From: Candidatus Dormiibacterota bacterium
Lineage (GTDB): Bacteria > Chloroflexota > Dormibacteria > Aeolococcales > Bog-877
Assembly: GCA_027306655.1 (NCBI GenBank)
Contig: DAHUZL010000031.1
Location: forward strand, 830 to 64,829
Direction of reading: 5' to 3'
Length of the DNA stretch: 64,000 bases
The notes beneath the pieces are model-generated. The model saw only the letters and a list, made by a program, of their open reading frames with translations. It was not told the origin of the DNA and made no database searches. Positions 17,246 through 54,431 of this stretch are shown piece after piece. Position numbers and translations under genes: made by a program. How positions within the stretch are numbered: the stretch's first letter is position 1; every line of letters begins with the position of its first letter.

Positions 17246-17331
17246 GCCAGCATGGCGGAATGGCAGACGCGGCGGTCTCAAAAACCGTTGTCCGCAAGGA
17301 CGTCCGGGTTCGACCCCCGGTGCTGGCACCA
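17246..17331 (+). tRNA. tRNA-Leu (anticodon CAA), class II with a long variable arm and encoded CCA
   Basis: Manual fold: acceptor stem GCCAGCA/UGCUGGC; D arm GCGG-AAUGGCAGA-CGC; anticodon stem GCGGU/ACCGU with loop CUCAAAA; variable arm UGUCCGCAAGGACGU; T arm CCGGG-UUCGACC-CCCGG; ACCA tail. Structure is co-linear with E. coli tRNA-Leu. Confidence 0.85.
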
Positions 17332-43926: not shown

Positions 43927-44235
43927 TCAGGCGGCGCCGTTGGAGCTGACGGCGAGGATGTCCCGCTCCGCCAGGATGAGGTAGTCCTGCTCGTCGATCT
44001 TCACCTCCGAGCCGGCGTACTTGGCGTAGATGACACGGTCGCCGACGACGACGTCGAGGGGCACGCGCTGCCCGGTCTGCTCGTTGTACTTGCCGTTGCC
44101 GACCGCCTCGACCAGCCCCTCCTGGGGCTTCTCCTTGGCGGTGTCGGGCAGGACGATGCCGCTCTTGGTGGTGTCCTCGCGCTCGAGGGGCCGGATCACC
44201 ACACGATCGGCCAGGGGACGAAGCTTCAGGGCCAT
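43927..44235 (-). CDS. groES: Co-chaperonin GroES (10 kDa)
   Basis: [14 protein letters not shown]...[13 protein letters not shown]...[14 protein letters not shown] is classic GroES. 102 aa. Confidence 0.95.
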
Positions 44236-44337: not shown

Positions 44338-45348
44338 TCAGCTGTAGGCGGTCAGCCCGGGGTCGACCACGATCGGGTCCCGGTCGTAGCCGCGCCGCGC
44401 CACCTCCAGCCCCCCGGCGACGCCGATCATGGCGGCGTTGTCGGTGCAGAACTCGGGAGCCGGGATGATCACGTCGGCCAGCGCCCCGCAGCGCCGGGCC
44501 ACCGCCGCGCGCAGGGCGCGGTTGCTGGCGACGCCGCCGACCACCACCACCCGGCCGGCGCCGGTGTGCTCGAGCGCCGCCTCCAGCTGGAGGCAGAGGG
44601 TGTCCACCGCGGCCGCCTGGAAGCTCGCCGCCACGTCCGCGACCAGCCCCGGGCGCTGCAGCCCACGGGGGTCGGCGGCGAGGCGATCGTCGAGCAGGTA
44701 CCGGACCGCCGTCTTGAGGCCGCTGAATGAGAAGGCGAAGTCGGGCAGCACCGGGCGGGGGAGCCGGTAGCGGGCGGGGTCGCCGGCCGTGGCCGCGCGG
44801 TCGATCGCGGGGCCGCCGGGGTAGGGCAGGCCGAGGAGCCGCGCCACCTTGTCGAACGCCTCGCCGACGGCGTCGTCGCGGGTGGCGCCGAGCAGCTCGG
44901 CCTCGCCGGGCCCGCGGACGTGGACGAGGTCGGTGTGGCCGCCGCTCACCACCAGGGCCACGAACGGCGGCTCCAGGTCCGGACGGGCCAGCCGGGCCGC
45001 CCACACGTGGCCCACCATGTGGCTCACCCCCACCACCGGGATCCCGCGCGCGGCCGCGGCCGCCTGGGCGTACCCGGTGCCCACCAGGAGGCAGCCGACC
45101 AGGCCGGGGCCGCGGGTGACGGCGATCCCCTCCACGGCCCCCCACCCCCCGGCCGGGCGCAGCGCCTCCTCCACCACCGCGGCGATCCGCTCCAGGTGCA
45201 TGCGGGCCGCCAGCTCCGGCACGACCCCGCCGTGGACGGCGTGGGCCGCGGCCTGGGACGCCACCACCGAGCTGAGCAGTCCCCCGCCGCCGTCCACCAC
45301 CGCGGCCGCGGTCTCGTCGCAGGAGGTCTCGATCGCGAGCAGGGTCAT
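44338..45348 (-). CDS. tsaD: tRNA N6-adenosine threonylcarbamoyltransferase (Kae1/YgjD family)
   Basis: MTLLAIETSCDETAAAVV N-terminus and metal-binding His motifs (VSHMVGHV). Start trimmed to the ATG at 45348, which overlaps the rimI stop (ATGA). Confidence 0.9.
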   Translation of the reverse strand: MTLLAIETSCDETAAAVVDGGGGLLSSVVASQAAAHAVHGGVVPELAARMHLERIAAVVEEALRPAGGWGAVEGIAVTRGPGLVGCLLVGTGYAQAAAAARGIPVVGVSHMVGHVWAARLARPDLEPPFVALVVSGGHTDLVHVRGPGEAELLGATRDDAVGEAFDKVARLLGLPYPGGPAIDRAATAGDPARYRLPRPVLPDFAFSFSGLKTAVRYLLDDRLAADPRGLQRPGLVADVAASFQAAAVDTLCLQLEAALEHTGAGRVVVVGGVASNRALRAAVARRCGALADVIIPAPEFCTDNAAMIGVAGGLEVARRGYDRDPIVVDPGLTAYS

Positions 45349-45866
45349 CGGATCGGGTACTCCACCGGAGGCGGCGGGCCCACCCCGGGGATGGTGAGCG
45401 CCGCCACCCGCAGGCGGAACCGGGCCTTGAAGGCGGGGGCGTGGAGGCTGTCGCTCCACATCACGATCGCGTCCTCCCCGTCATCGGTGTAGTAGCCGCG
45501 CCGCCGGCCCATCACCCGGAACCCGAATCCCTCGTAGAGATGGATCGCGACGTCGTTGCTGGCGCGCACCTCGAGGGTGACCCAGCGGGCGCCCATCTGG
45601 TACGCGCGGGTCAGGAGGGCGGCGAACAGGACCGCGCCGTAGCCCCGACCCTGGTCCGGGCGGCGGACCCCGATGGTGGTGACGTGGGCCTCCTCCCCCA
45701 CCCGCCAGAGCCCTCCGTAGCCGAGGATCTCGGGGCCGTGACGGAGGACGATGTAGCGGGCGGCGTGGTTGTGGGCGAGCTCGCGATAGTACGCGTTGCG
45801 GGGCCAGGGGGTGAGGAAGACGTCGCGCTCGATCGCCTGCACCTCGGGGACGTCCGCCTCCCGCAT
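45345..45866 (-). CDS. rimI: Ribosomal-protein-alanine N-acetyltransferase (GNAT)
   Basis: MREADVPEVQAIERDVFLTPWPRNAY aligns with the RimI N-terminus, and the GNAT motif QGRGYGAVL is present. It sits in the conserved tsaE-tsaB-rimI-tsaD order. Confidence 0.8.
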   Translation of the reverse strand: MREADVPEVQAIERDVFLTPWPRNAYYRELAHNHAARYIVLRHGPEILGYGGLWRVGEEAHVTTIGVRRPDQGRGYGAVLFAALLTRAYQMGARWVTLEVRASNDVAIHLYEGFGFRVMGRRRGYYTDDGEDAIVMWSDSLHAPAFKARFRLRVAALTIPGVGPPPPVEYPIR

Positions 45867-45889
45867 CGCGTCGACGACCACCCCGGCGA

Positions 45890-46582
45890 TCAGGACCACG
45901 GGGACGCCCGCCGGTCGCCGTAGTCGAGGTGGACCCGGTCGTACCCCGGGCCCGCCTCGGGGTCGGCCCAAAGGCTCCGCGCCGCCAGCCGGGCGAGGGC
46001 GGCGCTCCGGGGCCGCACCGCGGCGGCCGCCCGGCCCGGCGGGAACTCGGCGCCGGCCCCCTCCTCCACCAGGACCCGGGCGGAGCCGCCGATCCCCAGC
46101 GGGGGCTCGCCCCTCGGCACCAGCTCGGCCGGGCCCACCGGCATCCAGGCGCCCCCCTCGGCGCGGAACGCCTGGCGGTGGTGGCCACCCCGGCCGGCGG
46201 GGTGGACCACGAGGATCGGGTGGGGGCCGGGGTCCAGCCGGAAGGCGGTCACCTGGAGGCTGGGCACGGTCCGCAGCGGGCAGCCGCGCGCCTGGGCGGC
46301 GCCGAGCGCGGCCGCCACCCCGAGCCGCAGGCCCGTGTAGGAGCCCGGGCCGCGCCCGGCGACCACCCCCAGGAGGGGGCCGGGGCGACGGCCGAACAGC
46401 CTCCGCACAGCATCCACCAGGGCGCGCTCCGCGGCCCCGGCCCGGTCGTCCGGGGGGGGAACGGCGGCGAGCTCCGGCGGGTCCAGGAGGGTGCCGTCCG
46501 GGGCCACGGCGACGGCGAGCTCCCCCCCCCGCAGCGCCGTGTCCACCGCCAGCAGCCACCCGCCCGGGGCGGTGCCGGTCAC
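45890..46582 (-). CDS. tsaB: tRNA threonylcarbamoyladenosine biosynthesis protein TsaB (YeaZ, inactive Kae1 paralog)
   Basis: WLLAVDTALRGGELAV N-terminus (ASKHA fold) and its position between tsaE and rimI. GTG start trimmed to 46582, which overlaps the tsaE stop (GTGA). Confidence 0.75.
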   Translation of the reverse strand: MTGTAPGGWLLAVDTALRGGELAVAVAPDGTLLDPPELAAVPPPDDRAGAAERALVDAVRRLFGRRPGPLLGVVAGRGPGSYTGLRLGVAAALGAAQARGCPLRTVPSLQVTAFRLDPGPHPILVVHPAGRGGHHRQAFRAEGGAWMPVGPAELVPRGEPPLGIGGSARVLVEEGAGAEFPPGRAAAAVRPRSAALARLAARSLWADPEAGPGYDRVHLDYGDRRASPWS

Positions 46583-47037
46583 CCGGGCTCCCAGGCACGG
46601 CGGAGGTGGCGGGGGGCGTCGAGCTCGAGCCGGCGGCGGTCGCCGATCCCGGGGGTGATCCGGCACCGCGCCGAGAACCAGTCGCCGGCCGCCCGCTCGG
46701 CCCACTCCACCACCACCGCGCCCGACTCCAGCAGCTCCTCCACCCCGAGGCTCTCGAGCTCGACCCCCGGGTCGAGACGGTACAGGTCGAGATGGTGGAC
46801 CGTCAGCGGGCCCGGGTAGATGGCGTGGAGGATGAAGGTCGGGCTGCGCACCCGGTCGGCGGCGCCGGCGCCCTCCACCAGCCCCCGCACCAGCACGGTC
46901 TTGCCGGCCCCGAGGGGGCCGTCGAGGCCCAGGCAGTCGCCTTCGGCCAGCACCGACCCGAGCCGGGCCCCGAGGGCCTGCGTCTCCTTTGGGCCCAGGC
47001 TCGTCCGCTCCAGGCGGGGCCGGGCGGCCTCGGCCAT
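46579..47037 (-). CDS. tsaE: tRNA threonylcarbamoyladenosine biosynthesis ATPase TsaE (YjeE)
   Basis: P-loop GPLGAGKT plus SPTFIL and HHLDLYRL motifs. 152 aa from the ATG at 47037. Confidence 0.8.
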   Translation of the reverse strand: MAEAARPRLERTSLGPKETQALGARLGSVLAEGDCLGLDGPLGAGKTVLVRGLVEGAGAADRVRSPTFILHAIYPGPLTVHHLDLYRLDPGVELESLGVEELLESGAVVVEWAERAAGDWFSARCRITPGIGDRRRLELDAPRHLRRAWEPG

Positions 47038-47038
47038 A

Positions 47039-48022
47039 TCAGAAGTGGGCGAAGCCATGGGTCGAGCCGATCGGGAGCGCCGGCCCGCCGGGGCCGCTGC
47101 GGAGGGTGAGCCCCGGCTCCGGGCACAGCCGCCCGACCACGGCGAGGGGCGGCAGGCCCGCCCCCCAGCCGCTGCCGGCAAGGAGACGCTCCGCGACGGC
47201 GGCGGGCGCCGCGACGATCAGCTCGAAATCCTCGCCGCCCGTGAGCGCTCGCGCCAGCCGCTGGTCGCCCCAGAGATCGTCCAGGCCCGGGGCCAGCGGC
47301 ATCCGGTCGGCCCAGAGCTCGGCGCCGCAGCCGCTCGCCGCCGCCAGCCGGGCGGTGTCCAGGAGCATGCCGTCGCTGCAGTCGATCGCGCATTGGACCC
47401 CGGCCGCCGCCAGCGCCCGACCCGCCGCCACCCGCGCCCGGGGACGGAGCCAGCGCTCCGCCCCCGGGACGCGACCCGGGGGATCGCCCGCCTCCAGGCG
47501 CTCCAGCGCGGCCGCGGCGGCACCCAGCTCGCCGGTGAGGAGGATGCGGTCGTCCGGATGTCCGGCTGACCGGGTGAGGCAGCGGTCGGCGGGCGCGGCG
47601 CCGAGCAGGGTGCAGCTGACCGCGAGCGGACCCGCGGTGCCGCTGAGGTCGCCGCCGGCGACGCGGGCGCCGTCCTCTCCGGCGGCGTCGACAATCCCCT
47701 CCTGGAGCGCGACGACGCAGGCGGTGGCGGTGTCGGCAGGCAGCAGGAGGGTCACCACCACCAGCGCCGGACGGGCCCCCATCGCGGCCAGATCGGAGGC
47801 GGTCACGGCGTAGGCCTTCCACCCCACCTCGTACGGCAGCTGGGTGCGCCGGCGAAAGTCGACGTCCTCGACGAGGGCGTCGGTCGTGACCAGCACCACC
47901 TCCCCCGGCGGCGCCCTCCAGCCGGCGGCGTCGTCCCCGGCGGCGATCGCGAGGACCGCGTCCTCGCCGCCGGCCATCCGCACCAGGCGGTCGAGCAAGG
48001 GCCCCTCGCCGGTCGCCCGCAC
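47039..48022 (-). CDS. thiL: Thiamine-monophosphate kinase (AIR-synthase-related/PurM-like)
   Basis: GEGPLLDRLVRMAGGEDAVLAIAAGDDAA matches the ThiL N-terminal motif (GEFxLI...GDDAA), and the PurM-like fold is present. GTG start at 48022. Confidence 0.7.
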   Translation of the reverse strand: MRATGEGPLLDRLVRMAGGEDAVLAIAAGDDAAGWRAPPGEVVLVTTDALVEDVDFRRRTQLPYEVGWKAYAVTASDLAAMGARPALVVVTLLLPADTATACVVALQEGIVDAAGEDGARVAGGDLSGTAGPLAVSCTLLGAAPADRCLTRSAGHPDDRILLTGELGAAAAALERLEAGDPPGRVPGAERWLRPRARVAAGRALAAAGVQCAIDCSDGMLLDTARLAAASGCGAELWADRMPLAPGLDDLWGDQRLARALTGGEDFELIVAAPAAVAERLLAGSGWGAGLPPLAVVGRLCPEPGLTLRSGPGGPALPIGSTHGFAHF

Positions 48023-48143
48023 CGTCGGCGGCCCCGCCGACCAGGACACCGCGGGGGCTCCCGCCCCACCCGCCGCCGGCCTGGCCACGCGGCGATTGTA
48101 GGGGGGCACGGCGCCGGTCCCGGCGGTCGGCCCTGGGGGCCGA

Positions 48144-49448
48144 TCACCCCGACCGCTGACCCTCCAGGGTGCGGCGGAGCTGCTCCTGGGCCTCGACCGT
48201 CGCCGCCGCGATCTCGCTCGCGAGCAGCCCGGCCCGTCCCCGCGCCTCCGCCAGCCGGCGGCCCGCCTCGCCATGCACGAACACCCCGCAGCGGGCGGCG
48301 TCGGCGGCGGCGAGGCCCTGGGCCAGCAGCGCGCCGATCAGGCCGGTGAGGACGTCCCCGCTGCCGCCGGTGGCGAGCGCCGCGGTGGCATGGGGATCGA
48401 CGCTCGTCACCCCGGCGGCGTCGGCGACCACCGTGCTCGCTCCCTTGAGCACCACCACCGCCCCCAGCCGCCGCGCCAGCCCGGCCGCCGCCGCGGGCCG
48501 GTCGGCCTCCACCTGGGTCACCGACATGCTGCAGAGCCGGGCCATCTCGGCCGGGTGCGGGGTGAGGATGCTGAGGGGCGGCACCTTGGCGAGAAGGGAA
48601 CGGTCGGTGGCGCAGGCGTTGAGCGCGTCGGCATCGAGGACGAGCGGGACCGGCCGGGTTGCCAGCCGGTCGAGCAGCCCGTGCAGGAAGCCCTGGGTCT
48701 CGGGCGCTCGGCCCAGCCCGGGACCGACCGCCAGGGCCTGGACCTGGTCCAGCTCGTCCGCCAGCATCCCCAGCGCCGACGGGGCGAAGCCGCCGCCGGG
48801 GCCGGCCGCGACCGTGCCCAGGATCACCTCCGGCGGGAAGGCCCCCGGCCCGCCCGCCCCCACCGGCACCACCGCCCGGACCCTGCCGGCGCCGCCCCGG
48901 AGGGCGCCGAGGGCGCAGAGCACGGCGGCCCCCGGGTAGGCGGTGTGGCCGGCGACGACGAGGACGGTGCCGAACGTCCCCTTGTGGGCGTCCAGGGCCC
49001 GGGCCGGGAGACGGAGCCCGCGGGCGGCGGCCAGCAGCCGCGGGTCGGTCCATCCTCCCCCGCCCGGCTCCGGCGGACCCGGCGGCGCGGGCTCCAGGTG
49101 CACCGCCACCGCGATCGCGACCCCGGCGTCGTGGGTGAGGCTCACGGCCAGCCCGGGAACGGCCGCGCCGCCGACCACGACCGTGGGCGCTCGGCCCGGC
49201 GGGCGGCGCACCTCGATCGCGCGGTAGGCGGGGATCGGCCAGCCGCGACCCCCATACACCTTGCGTACCGCCTCCTTCACCGCCCACCGTCCCGCCCAGC
49301 GCTCGGGACGGCTGCCGCTGGTCCGGGCCTCGCCCTCGGTGAAGCAGCGCGAGCCGAAGCCGGGGTGCCGGCGCAGGGCTCGGGCGATGCGGTCGACGGC
49401 GGCGACATCCACGCCGAGGACCGGGCCCCGGGCAGGGGAGCCGTTCAC
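48144..49448 (-). CDS. Fusion protein: holo-ACP synthase (AcpS, 4'-phosphopantetheinyl transferase) N-terminal plus ADP-dependent NAD(P)H-hydrate dehydratase (YjeF_C / NnrD) C-terminal
   Basis: AcpS part: GVDVAAVDRIARAL, FTEGEAR, WAVKEAVRKV, SLTHDAGVAIAVAV. YjeF_C part: HKGTFGTVLVVAGHTAYPGAAVLCALGALRGGAGRV, ILTPHPAEMARL, VVVLKGASTVV, and the C-terminal TGGSGDVLTGLIGALLAQG. No YjeF_N epimerase domain is present. GTG start at 49448, 1 nt after the glmS stop. Confidence 0.75.
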   Translation of the reverse strand: MNGSPARGPVLGVDVAAVDRIARALRRHPGFGSRCFTEGEARTSGSRPERWAGRWAVKEAVRKVYGGRGWPIPAYRAIEVRRPPGRAPTVVVGGAAVPGLAVSLTHDAGVAIAVAVHLEPAPPGPPEPGGGGWTDPRLLAAARGLRLPARALDAHKGTFGTVLVVAGHTAYPGAAVLCALGALRGGAGRVRAVVPVGAGGPGAFPPEVILGTVAAGPGGGFAPSALGMLADELDQVQALAVGPGLGRAPETQGFLHGLLDRLATRPVPLVLDADALNACATDRSLLAKVPPLSILTPHPAEMARLCSMSVTQVEADRPAAAAGLARRLGAVVVLKGASTVVADAAGVTSVDPHATAALATGGSGDVLTGLIGALLAQGLAAADAARCGVFVHGEAGRRLAEARGRAGLLASEIAAATVEAQEQLRRTLEGQRSG

Positions 49449-49449
49449 G

Positions 49450-51282
49450 TCACTCGACGGTGACCGACTTGGCGAGGTTGCGCGGCTGGTCCACGTCACA
49501 GCCGCGCTCCACCGCGGCGTGGTACGCGAGCAGCTGGCCGACCAGGATGTTGACCAGCGGCGAGACCAGCTCGGGGACCTCGGGCACCACCAGCAGCCGC
49601 TGGACCCGCCCCTCGAGGGTACGGTCGCCCTCGCTGACCACCGCGATCACCGGGGTGTCGCGGGCCAGGACCTCCTCGACGTTGCTGCGGAGCTTGGCCA
49701 GTGTCCGCCCCGTGGTGGCGAGGGCGACCACCGGGAGGCGGCCGTCGAGCAGGGCGATCGGCCCGTGCTTGAGCTCGCCGGCGGGGTAGCCCTCGGCGTG
49801 CAGGTAGGAGACCTCCTTCAGCTTGAGGGCGGCCTCCATCGCGCAGGCGTGGTTCACGCCGCGGCCGATGAAGAGCGCGCCCGCCCGTCCCGCCAGCCAG
49901 CGCCCGGCACGGGCCACCTCCTCGGTGTCGGCCAGGACCTGTGCCTGCGCCGCCGGCACCATCCGGAGCGCCCGGGCCACGGCCGCGGCCCGGTCCGGGG
50001 CGAGCCGCCCCCGGGCGGCGGCCAGACGGAGGGCCACGAGCAGCCCGCAGACCACCTGGGTGACGAAGGTCTTGGTGGCGGCCACCCCGATCTCGGGCCC
50101 GGCGTGGAGGTTGACCACCCCGTCGGCCTCGCGCGCCAGCGCGCTACCGGTGGCGTTGCAGAGGGCCACCACGGGGCTGCCGGCGCGCCGGGCGCAGGCG
50201 GCGGCTGCCACGGTGTCCGCGGTCTCCCCGGACTGGGAGATCGCCACCGTGAGGACAGTCGGTCCGGTCGGGCGGTCACCGTAGCGGGCTTCGGAGGCGA
50301 CCGCCGCGTCGGCCGGCAGGCCGGCCAGCTCCTCGACGGCGTGGGCGGTGATCATGCCGGCGTAGTAGGCGGAGCCGGCCGCCACCACCCGCACCCGATC
50401 CAGGGCGCCGAGGCGTGCGTCCCCCACCGACCACTCCGGGAAGACCACGGTCCCGTCGTCCTGGAGGTGGCCCCGGAGCGCGCCGGCCGTCGCCGCCGGC
50501 TGCTCGTGGATCTCCTTCAGCATGAAGTGGGGGTGACCGTCGCGCTGGGCGGCGAGCTGGTCCCACGCGACCCGGAGCACCCTGAGGGGCTGGTCCGTGC
50601 CGTCGGCGATGGTGCTGACCACCGGCCCGGTCGGGCCCACCACCACCATCTCCCCCTCGCCCAACACCATGACCCGGCGGGTGTAGGGGAGGATCGCCGG
50701 GATGTCCGAGCTGATGAACCACTCGCCCTCGCCGACCCCCACCACCAGCGGGGAATTGCGTCGGGCGCCGATGAGGATGCGGGGATCGGTCGAGCTCAGG
50801 ACCACCAGCGCGAAGGCGCCGCGGAGCCGGGCCAGCGCGGTCCGGGTGGCGAGGACCAGGTCGCCGCGGTAGGCGGCCTCGATCAGGTGGGGCACCACCT
50901 CGGTGTCGGTGTCGGAGCTGAAGTGGTGGCCGGCGGCCTGGAGCTCGTCCCGGAGGGCCAGGAAGTTCTCGATGATCCCGTTGTGGATGACGAAGAAGCG
51001 GCCGTCGCAATCGGTGTGCGGATGGGCATTGGTCTCGGTGGGACGGCCGTGGGTCGCCCAGCGGGTGTGGCCGAGGCCGGCCGACCCCTCCGGCGCCGCC
51101 GCGCCCACGCGGTCGGCCAGCGCCGCCACCTTGCCGGCCGCCCGCACGCTGGTGGCCCGGCCCTGGTCGTCCACCACCGCGAGGCCGGCGGAGTCGTAGC
51201 CGCGATACTCCAGTCGGCGCAGGCTGTCGAGGAGGACGCCCGCGGCGGGCCGCTGCCCGAGGTATCCGATGATGCCGCACAC
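49450..51282 (-). CDS. glmS: Glutamine--fructose-6-phosphate aminotransferase
   Basis: The GTG start is followed by Cys2 (MCGIIGY), the Ntn-amidotransferase nucleophile, then two SIS domains. 610 aa. Confidence 0.95.
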   Translation of the reverse strand: MCGIIGYLGQRPAAGVLLDSLRRLEYRGYDSAGLAVVDDQGRATSVRAAGKVAALADRVGAAAPEGSAGLGHTRWATHGRPTETNAHPHTDCDGRFFVIHNGIIENFLALRDELQAAGHHFSSDTDTEVVPHLIEAAYRGDLVLATRTALARLRGAFALVVLSSTDPRILIGARRNSPLVVGVGEGEWFISSDIPAILPYTRRVMVLGEGEMVVVGPTGPVVSTIADGTDQPLRVLRVAWDQLAAQRDGHPHFMLKEIHEQPAATAGALRGHLQDDGTVVFPEWSVGDARLGALDRVRVVAAGSAYYAGMITAHAVEELAGLPADAAVASEARYGDRPTGPTVLTVAISQSGETADTVAAAACARRAGSPVVALCNATGSALAREADGVVNLHAGPEIGVAATKTFVTQVVCGLLVALRLAAARGRLAPDRAAAVARALRMVPAAQAQVLADTEEVARAGRWLAGRAGALFIGRGVNHACAMEAALKLKEVSYLHAEGYPAGELKHGPIALLDGRLPVVALATTGRTLAKLRSNVEEVLARDTPVIAVVSEGDRTLEGRVQRLLVVPEVPELVSPLVNILVGQLLAYHAAVERGCDVDQPRNLAKSVTVE

Positions 51283-51367: not shown

Positions 51368-52522
51368 TCAGGGACCGGACGGGCTCGGGGTCGGCCGAAG
51401 CGCTCGAACGGGCGTGGGCGTGGGCGTGGGCGTCGGGGAGGGGGTCGGGGTCGGCGGCGGGGTGGCGGTCGGGCTCGCCCCGGGCGTCACCCGGCGGCTC
51501 GGGAGGGGGCGGGGCGTTGTCCCCGGCGACCGGTGCGGCGCGGGGGTCGGCGACGCCGCCGGCCGGGCGGTCGGGGTCGGGTGCGGCAGCAGGCTCACCG
51601 TGACCACCACCGTGACGGTGGAGGGGGTCAAGGTCACCCCGGTCGGGCTCGCCAGGGGGACGACGACGGTGAGGCCCTGGCTCGCCCCGCTGATGTCGAT
51701 CGGCTCGGTCACCGCCTGGCCGAGCAGGTTCAGCTGGGCCGCCGGGCCGCTCGCCGTGACCGTGCTGGGGAAGCTGCGGACGTCGGTGAGGCGGGTGCCC
51801 GCGGGGGGCTGCCCGTCGCCGGAGAAGGTGACCACGACCGGCAGGGTCCGGGTGCTCCGCTGCGACGTGACCGAGATCACCGCGGTGACCACGAGCGGGC
51901 TGGGCACCAGCCCCCCGGCCCGCGGGCCGGACACCCCGACCAGCGTCACCGGGACCGACTGCGACAGGCTGGTGCGCAGGCCGCCGACGTCCGGGTGGAC
52001 CACCGCGCGGACCGCGGCCACGACCGAGCTGGCCCCGGTGACCCGGACCGCGTTCGGGCTGATCGCCACCACCTGGGCCGTGAACCCGGCGGGCGTGCGG
52101 CCGCGGGGGCTGGCGCGCACCGGGACCAGCGCGGTGACCAGGCGGTCCAGGCGCACCGCGACCTGGCCCGGGTGCGAGAGGACCGCCACGGCAGGATCCT
52201 GGTTGCGCACCTGGAGCGGGACCCGGTAGGTCCCGGGCGTGTCCAGCCCGGCCAGGTTGACCGACAGCCGCAGCCCGGCCAGGATCCGGCTCCGCGCCTG
52301 CACGTTGGACCGGAGCCCGGCGATCTGGAGGGAGATCCCCCCCGGGGCGCCCGGCCCGCTGACGAGGACCATCCCGCGGGCCAGGCCGGTCACCCCCACC
52401 CGGGCCGCCACCACCGTCTGCACCGCGGGGGGATTGCTGACGTAGACCACCGCCAGCCACATGCAGACGGCGAGCCCCGCCGCGACCAGCTTGAGGCGCA
52501 GGTTGTGGAGCAGGAAGGCCAT
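51368..52522 (-). CDS. cdaR: YbbR-domain protein (CdaR-like regulator of diadenylate cyclase) with a C-terminal Pro/Thr-rich low-complexity tail
   Basis: N-terminal TM helix (LVAAGLAVCMWLAVVYV), repeated beta-rich YbbR-like modules, and a tail ...PTPTARPAASPTPAPHRSPG...TPPPTPTPSPTPTPTPTP. Located directly after cdaA. Confidence 0.7.
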   Translation of the reverse strand: MAFLLHNLRLKLVAAGLAVCMWLAVVYVSNPPAVQTVVAARVGVTGLARGMVLVSGPGAPGGISLQIAGLRSNVQARSRILAGLRLSVNLAGLDTPGTYRVPLQVRNQDPAVAVLSHPGQVAVRLDRLVTALVPVRASPRGRTPAGFTAQVVAISPNAVRVTGASSVVAAVRAVVHPDVGGLRTSLSQSVPVTLVGVSGPRAGGLVPSPLVVTAVISVTSQRSTRTLPVVVTFSGDGQPPAGTRLTDVRSFPSTVTASGPAAQLNLLGQAVTEPIDISGASQGLTVVVPLASPTGVTLTPSTVTVVVTVSLLPHPTPTARPAASPTPAPHRSPGTTPRPLPSRRVTPGASPTATPPPTPTPSPTPTPTPTPVRALRPTPSPSGP

Positions 52523-52527
52523 CCCGG

Positions 52528-53415
52528 TCAGGACCGCTCGACCGGCTGGGGGGGGATGACGCGCGAGCCGCGCAGCCGGAGCCGCCGCATCCCGTGCATC
52601 CGCTCCGACGGGGGCACGCCCAGGAAGAGGGCGAGACGGCGGGCGAGCTCGGGGCCGTCGACGCCGCGCTGGAGCTGGCCCGCCTGGGCGAGGCTGACCC
52701 CCCCGGTCTCCTCGGAGACCACCACCACCAGGGCGTCCGTCTGCTGGCTGCAGCCGAGCGCCGCCCGGTGACGGGTCCCGACCCGTCCCACGCCGCCGAC
52801 CTGCTCGGCCAGGGGCAGGACACAGCCGGCGGCCACCACCCGACCGTCGCGGACCAGGACCGCGCCGTCGTGGAGCGCCGACCGGGGCGCGAAGATCGTC
52901 TGCAGGACCTCGGCCGAGACCACCGCGTCGAGGCGAATCCCGGTGACCGCGATCTCCTCCAGGCCGGTGGCGTCGGGCAGGACGATCAGCGCGCCGATCC
53001 GCGCCTCGCTCAGGCGAGCGATCGCGAGCCCGATCTCGGCGATCTCGCGGTGGAGCTCGGCCATGTCGCGGTGGACGACCCCGGGCCGGAAGCGCCCCAG
53101 CCGGCCCATCTCGTCCAGCGCCCGGCGCAGCTCGGGCTGGAAGAGAACGATCACCCCGATCAGGATCGCCTGGCCCCCGTTGCGGTAGATGAAGGCCAAT
53201 ACCGGCAGGCGGAGGGTGATCGCGACCGCGCCGAGCGCCCCGATCACGACCAGGCCCAGGAGGAGCTGGACCGCCTGGGTCCCGCGGACCAGGAGCAGGA
53301 GGCGGTAGACGAGGAAGGTGATGATGACGATGTCGACGGCGTCGCGCCAGCCGACCGTCTGCAGCAGCACCCGCAGGGTCTGGGGGACGTCCACGGCGGC
53401 GACGATCGGCTCCAT
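52528..53415 (-). CDS. cdaA: Diadenylate cyclase CdaA (DAC domain, membrane-anchored)
   Basis: Three N-terminal TM helices, then a DAC domain with DGA (HDGAVLVRD), RHRAALG and VVVSEETGGVSLA motifs. Start trimmed to the ATG at 53415. Confidence 0.85.
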   Translation of the reverse strand: MEPIVAAVDVPQTLRVLLQTVGWRDAVDIVIITFLVYRLLLLVRGTQAVQLLLGLVVIGALGAVAITLRLPVLAFIYRNGGQAILIGVIVLFQPELRRALDEMGRLGRFRPGVVHRDMAELHREIAEIGLAIARLSEARIGALIVLPDATGLEEIAVTGIRLDAVVSAEVLQTIFAPRSALHDGAVLVRDGRVVAAGCVLPLAEQVGGVGRVGTRHRAALGCSQQTDALVVVVSEETGGVSLAQAGQLQRGVDGPELARRLALFLGVPPSERMHGMRRLRLRGSRVIPPQPVERS

Positions 53416-53417
53416 CG

Positions 53418-54431
53418 TCACGGCGGTCCGGGGGCCGCTCGGCGAGCGCCCCCGTCCCCCTCCGGGGCAGGGAGGCCGGCGCCGGCCTGGACCCGGCCGT
53501 CCCGGCCCGCGAAGATGGCGCAGAGCAGCGCCTGCTGCACCCACAGACGATTCTCCGCCTGCGCGAACACCACCGAGCGGGGCCCGTCCAGCACCTCGTC
53601 GGTGATCTCCTCGCCGCGGTGGGCGGGCAGGCAGTGCATCACCCGCGCGTGGGCCGGAGCCTGCGCCAGCAGCTCGGCGTTCACCTGGTAGGGGCCGAAG
53701 TCCTCCCGCCGCCGCTCGTGTTCGCCCTCCTGGCCCATGCTGGTCCAGACGTCGGTGTAGACGACGTCGGCGTCCGCCACCCCGAGACGGAGGTCGTCGG
53801 TCACCCGCACCGGCGGCGCCCCCTTCGGCGCCAGCCGCGCTCCCCGGTCGACGACCTGGGGATGGGGCTCGTACCCCCGCGGAGTGACCACCGTGAGCGC
53901 GATCCCGAGCAGCCCCGCGGCCTCGATCCAGGAGTGGCAGACGTTGTTGCCATCGCCGATGAAGGCCACCCGTGCCCCCGCGATCCGTCCGGTCACCTCC
54001 TCCAGGGTGAGGCAGTCGGCGAGGACCTGGCAGGGATGCGACGCATCCGTCATCGCATTGATGACCGGCGCGCGCATGTGCTCGGCCAGTCCGAGCAGGT
54101 CGCGGTGGGAGGGGATGCGCGCCACCAGCCCGTCCACGAAGCGGTCCAGGATGCGGGCGACGTCGGCCACCGACTCCCGGCGTCCCATCTCGATCTCGCG
54201 GTCGAAGAGCGCCACCGGGTGGCCGCCGAGGCGGTGGATCGCGACCTCGAACGAGACCCGGGTGCGGTTGCTCGGCCGCAGGAAGATCATCGCCACCGTA
54301 CGGCCGTGCAGGGGCCGGCCCGGGTCCTCCCCCCGCTTCTGGCGCGCCGCCAGGGCCAGCAGGCTCTCGCAGGTGGCGGCGTCGAGGTCAGCGATGCTGA
54401 GGAAGTCGCGTCCCTGCAGCCGGCTTTCCAC
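53418..54431 (-). CDS. argF: Ornithine carbamoyltransferase
   Basis: S-x-RTR carbamoyl-phosphate site (SNRTR), HPCQ, DVWTSMGQE and HCLPAHRGEE support OTC rather than ATCase. 337 aa. Confidence 0.8.
   Translation of the reverse strand: MESRLQGRDFLSIADLDAATCESLLALAARQKRGEDPGRPLHGRTVAMIFLRPSNRTRVSFEVAIHRLGGHPVALFDREIEMGRRESVADVARILDRFVDGLVARIPSHRDLLGLAEHMRAPVINAMTDASHPCQVLADCLTLEEVTGRIAGARVAFIGDGNNVCHSWIEAAGLLGIALTVVTPRGYEPHPQVVDRGARLAPKGAPPVRVTDDLRLGVADADVVYTDVWTSMGQEGEHERRREDFGPYQVNAELLAQAPAHARVMHCLPAHRGEEITDEVLDGPRSVVFAQAENRLWVQQALLCAIFAGRDGRVQAGAGLPAPEGDGGARRAAPGPP

Follow-up and report, generated by a model that had tools for sequence, protein, structure and literature searches.

How do two housekeeping enzymes, the holo-acyl carrier protein (ACP) synthase AcpS and the ADP-dependent NAD(P)HX dehydratase NnrD, come to be encoded as a single polypeptide, and what would such a polypeptide do? 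This question is raised by a gene located in a stretch of 64,000 nucleotides (hereafter, the window) of contig DAHUZL010000031.1 from the Candidatus Dormiibacterota bacterium assembly GCA_027306655.1. An earlier reading of the sequence alone, referred to below as the original prediction, had described this gene as an AcpS fused to a YjeF_C (NnrD) dehydratase with no YjeF_N epimerase domain. Here, we combined domain and structure searches with comparison of gene loci to study the architecture, the origin, and the possible function of the encoded protein. The gene is a continuous AcpS–NnrD fusion in which the catalytic residues of both domains are conserved. The reading that we favor as probable, based on sequence comparison, is that adjacent, tightly packed genes merged to give a bifunctional housekeeping enzyme whose two activities are independent. 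Full-text literature searches retrieved no published description of an AcpS–NnrD fusion.

Domain architecture of the AcpS–NnrD protein

In the list of open reading frames (ORFs), the frame that opens at the first GTG covers positions 48144..49499 of the minus strand and encodes 451 amino acids. The likely start codon of the fusion gene is the GTG at 49448, 1 nucleotide past the TGA stop codon of glmS (49450-49452), which gives a protein of 434 amino acids; residue numbers refer to this protein unless the numbering of the 451-residue ORF is specified, from which 17 is subtracted to obtain them. The database protein P0001, also 434 amino acids long, is 100% identical to the fusion over its full length and represents the same gene call. 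Gene calls in two independent Logan assemblies, SRR13766253 and SRR10333328, place its start at the same codon, with thiL and then tsaE behind it in each. The coordinates 48144-49448, at which the original prediction had placed one gene, are therefore those of the gene, and its frame is continuous without a frameshift.

The N-terminal domain was identified as AcpS by its sequence, fold, and motifs (Table 1). The Pfam family ACPS (PF01648) matches residues 28-130 in the 451-residue numbering over model positions 2-109 of 111 (E=6.7e-8, 33.0 bits versus the gathering score of 25), and relatives of the same architecture reach 43-69 bits. The NCBIfam models of holo-ACP synthase produce matches down to E=3e-13, all of them under the equivalog cut-offs, and the domain is thus a divergent AcpS. 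Among PDB sequences, phmmer identified the AcpS proteins of Streptomyces coelicolor (2jbz, E=5e-8) and Bacillus subtilis (1f7l/1f80, ~3e-6). In an AlphaFold model built with 28 homologues, which contains two well-folded domains (mean predicted local distance difference test score, pLDDT, 90.2; predicted template modelling score, pTM, 0.71), the N-terminal part forms a single alpha/beta AcpS fold of ~120 amino acids with pLDDT ~88-97. Foldseek aligned this domain with the AcpS structures 2jbz, 2wds, 1f7l, 1f80, and 5xuk at template modelling scores normalized to the target, TM(target), of 0.74-0.80 and ~32% identity. The AcpS similarity, whose failure in profile searches had been proposed as a way to refute the fusion, passes the Pfam threshold and agrees with the fold. 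The domain contains the motifs G12-x-D14, R54-W55-A-x-K58-E59-A-V-x-K63, and S-L-T-H106-D107. The residues D14, K58, E59, K63, H106, and D107, comprising the Mg2+-binding Asp/Glu, the Lys, and the His-Asp pair, are invariant in a conservation set of 28 fusion proteins sharing 47-70% identity with that of the window. The pair H106-D107 aligns with H110/D111 of the S. coelicolor enzyme, for which structures of the H110A (2wds) and D111A (2wdy) mutants are present in PDB. The AcpS motifs of the original prediction are thus borne out.

The assignment of the C-terminal domain is based on strong matches in all searches. Pfam Carb_kinase (PF01256) covers residues 179-431 in the 451-residue numbering with E=8.9e-51 and 173 bits versus a threshold of 27, and NCBIfam yjeF_cterm (TIGR00196) scores 194.8 bits versus a cut-off of 129.85. 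Among PDB sequences, phmmer matched this domain to Nnr of Thermotoga maritima (2ax3, E=3e-41) and YxkO of B. subtilis (1kyh/3rph, 1e-31). Foldseek assigned it to the ribokinase-like fold, with matches to TM0922 (3rt7, E=1.7e-22; ~35% identity to 3rt7/2ax3) and with TM(target) of 0.79-0.83 to YxkO and EF1790; 2ax3, 1kyh, and 3rph were also among the matches. All YjeF_C motifs that had been noted from the sequence are present, namely H-K156-G-x-F-G, G242-P-G-L-G, D272-A-D-x-L-N277, T296-P-H-P-x-E301, and G361-G-x-G-D365-V-L-x-G; they are invariant in the alignment of the 28 fusions and align to TM0922 and YxkO.

The region between the domains differs from both of them. Within the 28 fusions, the AcpS domain and YjeF_C have mean pairwise identities of 0.59 and 0.54, as against 0.25 in the linker, and pLDDT falls below 50 at residues 122-130. 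Judged from these alignments, both halves are under selection: the catalytic residues are invariant and the domains are equally conserved, while the linker is not. In the window protein, 48 residues separate the H-D motif from the HKG lysine, compared with ~35-40 in most relatives; the linker thus exceeds theirs by ~10 residues, which form a Pro/Gly-rich insert, PAPPGPPEPGGGGW; in the homologue P0116 the insert is longer still, with 64 residues.

These conservation patterns bear on the possibility that one half only is catalytic. The AcpS-like domain could be a non-enzymatic oligomerisation or scaffold module that replaced YjeF_N, with ACP activated by another phosphopantetheinyl transferase (PPTase), or the dehydratase half could be inactive. 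The divergence of the AcpS domain, which remains under the equivalog cut-offs and shares just about one third of its residues with solved AcpS structures, would fit such a role. However, the Mg2+-binding Asp/Glu, the catalytic Lys, and the His-Asp pair do not vary across 28 divergent fusions, the domain is conserved at least as well as the dehydratase domain, and it holds the housekeeping position of acpS by glmS, as in loci of Actinomycetota. We therefore regard a protein with a single catalytic half as very unlikely.

No epimerase domain was found in the protein or around it. PF03853 (YjeF_N) has zero matches in the fusion protein, and the Nnr equivalog model NF007856 scores 147.8 versus a cut-off of 703, matching at model positions 238-491 only, i.e., in its C-terminal half. 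Two custom hidden Markov models (HMMs) were constructed: a YjeF_N model from a diverse set of 43 Nnr proteins drawn from many phyla, with a consensus that holds the canonical GKGNNGGDG and DIPSGLDADTG motifs, and a broad AcpS model from 27 loci. When 665 six-frame ORFs of the 64-kb window were searched with HMMER filters off, only noise (E >1) was obtained for YjeF_N or a second AcpS beyond the fusion itself, in agreement with the predicted absence of a YjeF_N partner in the window. A degenerate YjeF_N hidden between the domains was ruled out, since just ~30 disordered residues without an HMM match are found there.

Distribution, comparative loci, and origin of the fusion

The original prediction had proposed to check whether the fusion is conserved in the lineage. 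All of the best 120 homologue clusters (clustered at 90% identity; 46-100% identical to the window protein) have the PF01648+PF01256 architecture; their named members are called "NAD(P)H-hydrate dehydratase" and are mostly from metagenome-assembled genomes (MAGs) of Candidatus Dormibacteria or Dormibacterota. A profile search was also performed in 1.84 billion cluster representatives at 50% identity, and the best 150 were classified using the custom HMMs: 48 are AcpS–YjeF_C fusions, 87 are YjeF_N–YjeF_C proteins, and ~14 are YjeF_C alone, with no tri-domain AcpS–YjeF_N–YjeF_C protein among these 150.

The fusion is also present in Firmicutes of the class Clostridia, where Pfam confirmed it in the cultured Levyella massiliensis (WP_019189571.1, with 165 member sequences and contigs as long as 1.68 Mb) as well as in an Oscillospiraceae/Ruminococcaceae MAG. 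The gene contexts there are amidohydrolase-[fusion]-PemK and [fusion]-alr-mazE-mazF, and the proteins form a YjeF_C clade apart from the Dormibacterota-type proteins in a neighbour-joining (NJ) tree computed with no support values. The different context and the separate clade suggest that the AcpS–NnrD fusion probably arose at least twice. Several Dormibacterota-type fusion loci of identical synteny carry the record labels 'Candidatus Acidiferrales', 'Candidatus Angelobacter', 'Zixiibacteriota', 'Chloroflexi', or 'Verrucomicrobiae' (L001, L005, and L010 among them); these MAG labels look unreliable, so that phylum counts for the fusion need caution.

To compare gene arrangements, loci were surveyed in one genome per GTDB species, and the 80 loci returned were classed with three HMMs. 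Because one of the two search patterns was derived from the AcpS domain, adjacency frequencies in this survey are biased toward AcpS loci. Three arrangements are of interest (Table 1): acpS immediately preceding a full-length nnr (class A), acpS immediately preceding an nnrD that lacks YjeF_N (class B), and the in-frame fusion (class C). All nine class C loci have the gene order argF-cdaA-ybbR-glmS-[fusion]-(alr)-thiL-tsaE-tsaB-rimI-tsaD-groES, which makes their fusion genes positional orthologues of the one in the window. In the class B loci L010, L011, and L020, the order is cdaA-ybbR-glmM-glmS-acpS/nnrD-alr, with separate acpS and nnrD genes and without YjeF_N. The Actinomycetota locus L049 contains glmM-glmS-x-acpS/nnr-alr...tsaE-rimI-tsaD-groES, and both L049 and L078 show the arrangement glmS-acpS/YjeF_N–YjeF_C-alr. 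In all Dormibacterota-type, class B, and Actinomycetota loci, glmS is upstream of acpS.

In two of the class B loci, the junction holds a single stop codon between the two genes. In L010 (10349-10372), the junction reads GGG-TAG-GTG, with acpS and nnrD in the same frame and one stop codon between them. In L011 (10346-10380), a TGA stop is followed by an in-frame downstream ATG, again with one in-frame stop codon between the genes. Changing one base would be enough to join or separate acpS and nnrD in either locus, and low-level read-through giving a fusion product is conceivable there. Such junctions also show how an artefact could look: a one-base error, a frameshift, or a missed stop could join two genes and mimic a fusion, a possibility that had been recognized when the fusion was predicted. 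However, the identical 434-residue ORF is present in the NCBI contig and in assemblies of two independent read sets, and the architecture is continuous in over 120 clusters at the 90% level of identity and in 48 at the 50% level, including RefSeq proteins of the cultured L. massiliensis. The independent assemblies and the hundreds of homologues effectively refute an artefact, and we consider its probability negligible.

These arrangements suggest how the fusion may have been formed. The NJ trees computed for each domain place L010, L011, and L020 as a group beside the fused clade, with the Chloroflexota-type full-length Nnr proteins coming next. In the ancestral state, acpS and nnr would have been adjacent, tightly packed, and probably translationally coupled within an old cluster glmS-acpS-nnr-alr...tsaE-tsaB-rimI-tsaD-groES. 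Loss of YjeF_N from nnr would then have left the pair acpS/nnrD, and loss of the stop codon between these genes would have produced the fusion. This order of events (acpS/nnr, YjeF_N loss, stop loss) is the simplest reading of the loci. Because acpS already adjoins nnr in many phyla, the fusion is best described as the joining of two genes that were paired beforehand and not as a new combination.

The alanine racemase gene alr is a further member of this group of genes. It is located directly behind the fusion in six of the nine other fused loci and also behind the stand-alone nnrD in L010, L011, and L020; it is absent from the window locus. The acpS-nnr-alr trio thus persists without an epimerase domain, and the retention of alr beside such a pair bears on the published idea that ties the association with alr and vitamin B6 to the epimerase.

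The neighbours of the fusion gene in the window, named by Pfam and NCBIfam and all encoded on the minus strand, include every gene of the locus originally described (glmS, the fusion, thiL, tsaE-tsaB-rimI-tsaD, groES; Table 1). The start of thiL lies 34 nucleotides downstream of the fusion stop codon. The original prediction had also called this locus syntenic with the mycobacterial nnr neighbourhood. The synteny holds with loci from Actinomycetota MAGs (glmS-acpS/nnr-alr...tsaE-rimI-tsaD-groES), which formed the comparison set in place of Mycobacterium itself. In the window, cdaA-ybbR is located directly upstream of glmS without an intervening glmM, unlike the cdaA-ybbR-glmM-glmS order of L010, L011, and L020, and no glmM homologue was detected anywhere in the 64 kb. 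The C-terminus of the YbbR-domain protein (51368-51600, minus strand) is a long Pro/Thr/Ser-rich low-complexity tail containing PTPTPSPTPTPTPTP. ARAGORN, and Rfam at gathering thresholds, identified a single RNA gene in the window, tRNA-Leu(CAA) at 17246-17331 of the plus strand; the Rfam scan revealed no glmS ribozyme or other riboswitch near glmS-fusion-thiL.

Table 1. Coordinates of the fusion gene, its domains, and its neighbours in the window, with alr genes and locus classes from the survey
Feature	Sequence or loci	Coordinates	Strand	Basis or remark
AcpS–NnrD fusion gene, 434 amino acids	window	48144..49448	minus	GTG start at 49448; stop codon 48144-48146
AcpS-type (group I) 4'-phosphopantetheinyl transferase domain, residues ~10-117	window	49098..49421	minus	Pfam, phmmer, Foldseek
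Pro/Gly-rich interdomain linker, residues ~118-146	window	49011..49097	minus	low conservation, predicted disorder
YjeF_C / NnrD domain, predicted ADP-dependent (S)-NAD(P)HX dehydratase, residues ~147-428	window	48165..49010	minus	Pfam, NCBIfam, phmmer, Foldseek
argF	window	53418-54431	minus	Pfam/NCBIfam
cdaA (diadenylate cyclase)	window	52528-53544	minus	Pfam/NCBIfam
ybbR/cdaR (cdaA partner)	window	51368-52522	minus	Pfam/NCBIfam
glmS	window	49450-51282	minus	Pfam GATase_6/7 and two SIS domains; directly upstream of the fusion
thiL	window	47039-48109	minus	TIGR01379, 226.7 bits versus cut-off 184; also a gene call in L081
tsaE	window	46579-47181	minus	Pfam/NCBIfam
tsaB	window	45890-46705	minus	Pfam/NCBIfam
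rimI	window	45345-45914	minus	Pfam/NCBIfam
tsaD	window	44338-45459	minus	Pfam/NCBIfam
groES	window	43927-44235	minus	Pfam/NCBIfam
alr	L003	8223-9269
alr	L004	11320-12408
alr	L005	11269-12345
alr	L006	11251-12333
alr	L008	5467-6519
alr	L016	11170-12252
alr	L010	11299-12393
Class A loci	L009, L023, L027, L031, L034, L049, L053, L065, L066, L078			labelled as several phyla
Class B loci	L010, L011, L018, L020, L030; more loosely L012, L014
Class C loci	L001-L008, L016

Possible activities and functional coupling

As a bifunctional enzyme, the protein would carry out two reactions. The N-terminal domain would transfer the 4'-phosphopantetheine arm from coenzyme A (CoA) onto apo-ACP with release of 3',5'-ADP, and the C-terminal NnrD domain would convert (S)-NAD(P)HX to NAD(P)H in an ADP-dependent manner. 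Connected by a flexible linker of ~30 residues, the two domains most likely act independently. The epimerase step could be provided by spontaneous R/S interconversion or be encoded elsewhere. A dehydratase without an epimerase was previously reported in 168 of ~1,600 genomes, spontaneous interconversion of the R and S epimers takes place with a half-time of 40 min, and NAD(P)HX levels are normal in an E. coli K192A mutant with a dead epimerase (Niehaus 2018, Biosci Rep, PMC5938422). In view of these findings, loss of YjeF_N can be considered ordinary and tolerated.

Several points weigh against this interpretation. AcpS is a homotrimer with active sites at the subunit interfaces, and dehydratases of the YxkO type are tetramers; fitting both oligomers into one chain could compromise one of the activities. 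For the N-terminal domain, the equivalog models do not certify an exact equivalence to holo-ACP synthase: the best of them, NF000832, scores 50 bits versus a cut-off of 107, and TIGR00516 scores 29.6 versus 59.8. The search for a second AcpS or a stand-alone YjeF_N spans the 64-kb window alone. The NJ trees, which were not bootstrapped, are compatible with either direction of change between the L010-type and fused states, fusion or fission. Finally, the presence of the fusion in two phyla, together with the clustering of acpS and yjeF in seven (PMC5938422), could mean that the two functions are really coupled.

Such coupling, beyond mere co-expression, could take two forms. By docking on ACP, the AcpS domain could bring NAD(P)HX repair near the NADPH-consuming FabG/FabI steps of fatty-acid synthesis, or the dehydratase could be regulated by CoA or 3',5'-ADP that the AcpS site binds or makes. 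In the study that reported clustering of acpS with yjeF in seven phyla, a link to the use of NADPH in lipid synthesis was proposed (PMC5938422). In our survey, acpS immediately precedes nnr or nnrD in loci whose labels cover many different phyla, and the association tracks the dehydratase half even without YjeF_N. The fusion itself is known from two phyla or more, with gene contexts that differ between them. On the other side, no chemical link between the reactions exists, since 3',5'-ADP, the by-product of AcpS, lacks a phosphoanhydride bond and is unable to act as phosphoryl donor in place of ADP. The linker is disordered and unconserved, and the model, at the pTM given above, contains no confident domain-domain interface. 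In most bacteria the genes are apart, or adjacent yet unfused, and the adjacency rates from a survey biased toward AcpS-containing loci are not unbiased estimates. Taken together, real coupling is possible but appears unlikely to us.

A more general proposal, to which we would give slightly less credence still, is that the repeated acpS-nnr adjacency and the repeated fusion of AcpS to the dehydratase (never, among those seen, to the epimerase half) reflect coupling of ACP activation or fatty-acid synthesis with NAD(P)HX repair, for instance as ACP-docked repair protecting NADPH-dependent steps of type II fatty-acid synthesis or as a CoA-regulated dehydratase. If true, the fusion would be a Rosetta-stone clue to why the two genes cluster, a question that has lacked an answer since 2018. 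L. massiliensis is a cultured organism where this question of coupling could be addressed directly.

Significance and comparison with known systems

Because its two component genes adjoin each other in many bacteria, the fusion is a modest curiosity, if a tidy one, and not a system of a new kind: it combines two textbook enzymes in an architecture that is present in public databases yet under-annotated, and that is not unique to the Dormibacterota-type lineage. Its main value lies in correcting the annotation by revealing a hidden AcpS, in assigning the acpS association to the dehydratase half, and in leading to a cultured organism for the question of coupling. Because the database name leaves the AcpS half unannotated, metabolic reconstructions for Dormibacterota and Levyella-type Clostridia may wrongly lack a holo-ACP synthase.

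Among the characterized systems, the bifunctional Nnr/YjeF proteins (E. coli YjeF, T. maritima TM0922) match the C-terminal domain of the fusion at the level of orthologues and occupy the same position beside acpS and alr; in contrast to them, the fusion has no YjeF_N epimerase and has AcpS as its N-terminal partner instead. The stand-alone NnrD of B. subtilis, YxkO (EC 4.2.1.136), possesses the same domain and motifs without an epimerase, at TM(target) ~0.8, but is a single-domain protein unfused to AcpS. As compared with the stand-alone AcpS proteins of S. coelicolor (SCO4744, 2jbz) and B. subtilis (1f7l/1f80), the N-terminal domain covers the whole fold of ~120 amino acids, keeps the Asp/Glu/Lys residues and the His-Asp pair, and retains the glmS-side position of the Actinomycetota acpS; it differs from them by its divergent sequence and by the covalently attached second enzyme.

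Two further comparisons concern the combination of the domains. Clustering of yjeF with holo-ACP synthase genes in seven phyla was described as being of "significance unclear" (Niehaus 2018, PMC5938422). The pair of functions is the same, but there it is represented by neighbouring genes with a full-length yjeF, and here by one polypeptide without the epimerase. As both the fusion and the acpS/nnrD intermediates lack YjeF_N, the association with acpS belongs to the dehydratase half and not to the epimerase. A precedent for an AcpS-type domain inside a multifunctional protein is the alpha subunit of the fungal type I fatty-acid synthase (PDB 2was/2wat), a weak match of the N-terminal domain (E ~6e-4). 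In the fungal enzyme, the partner of this domain uses the ACP, whereas the partner in the fusion is a cofactor-repair enzyme without a direct role in acyl chemistry.

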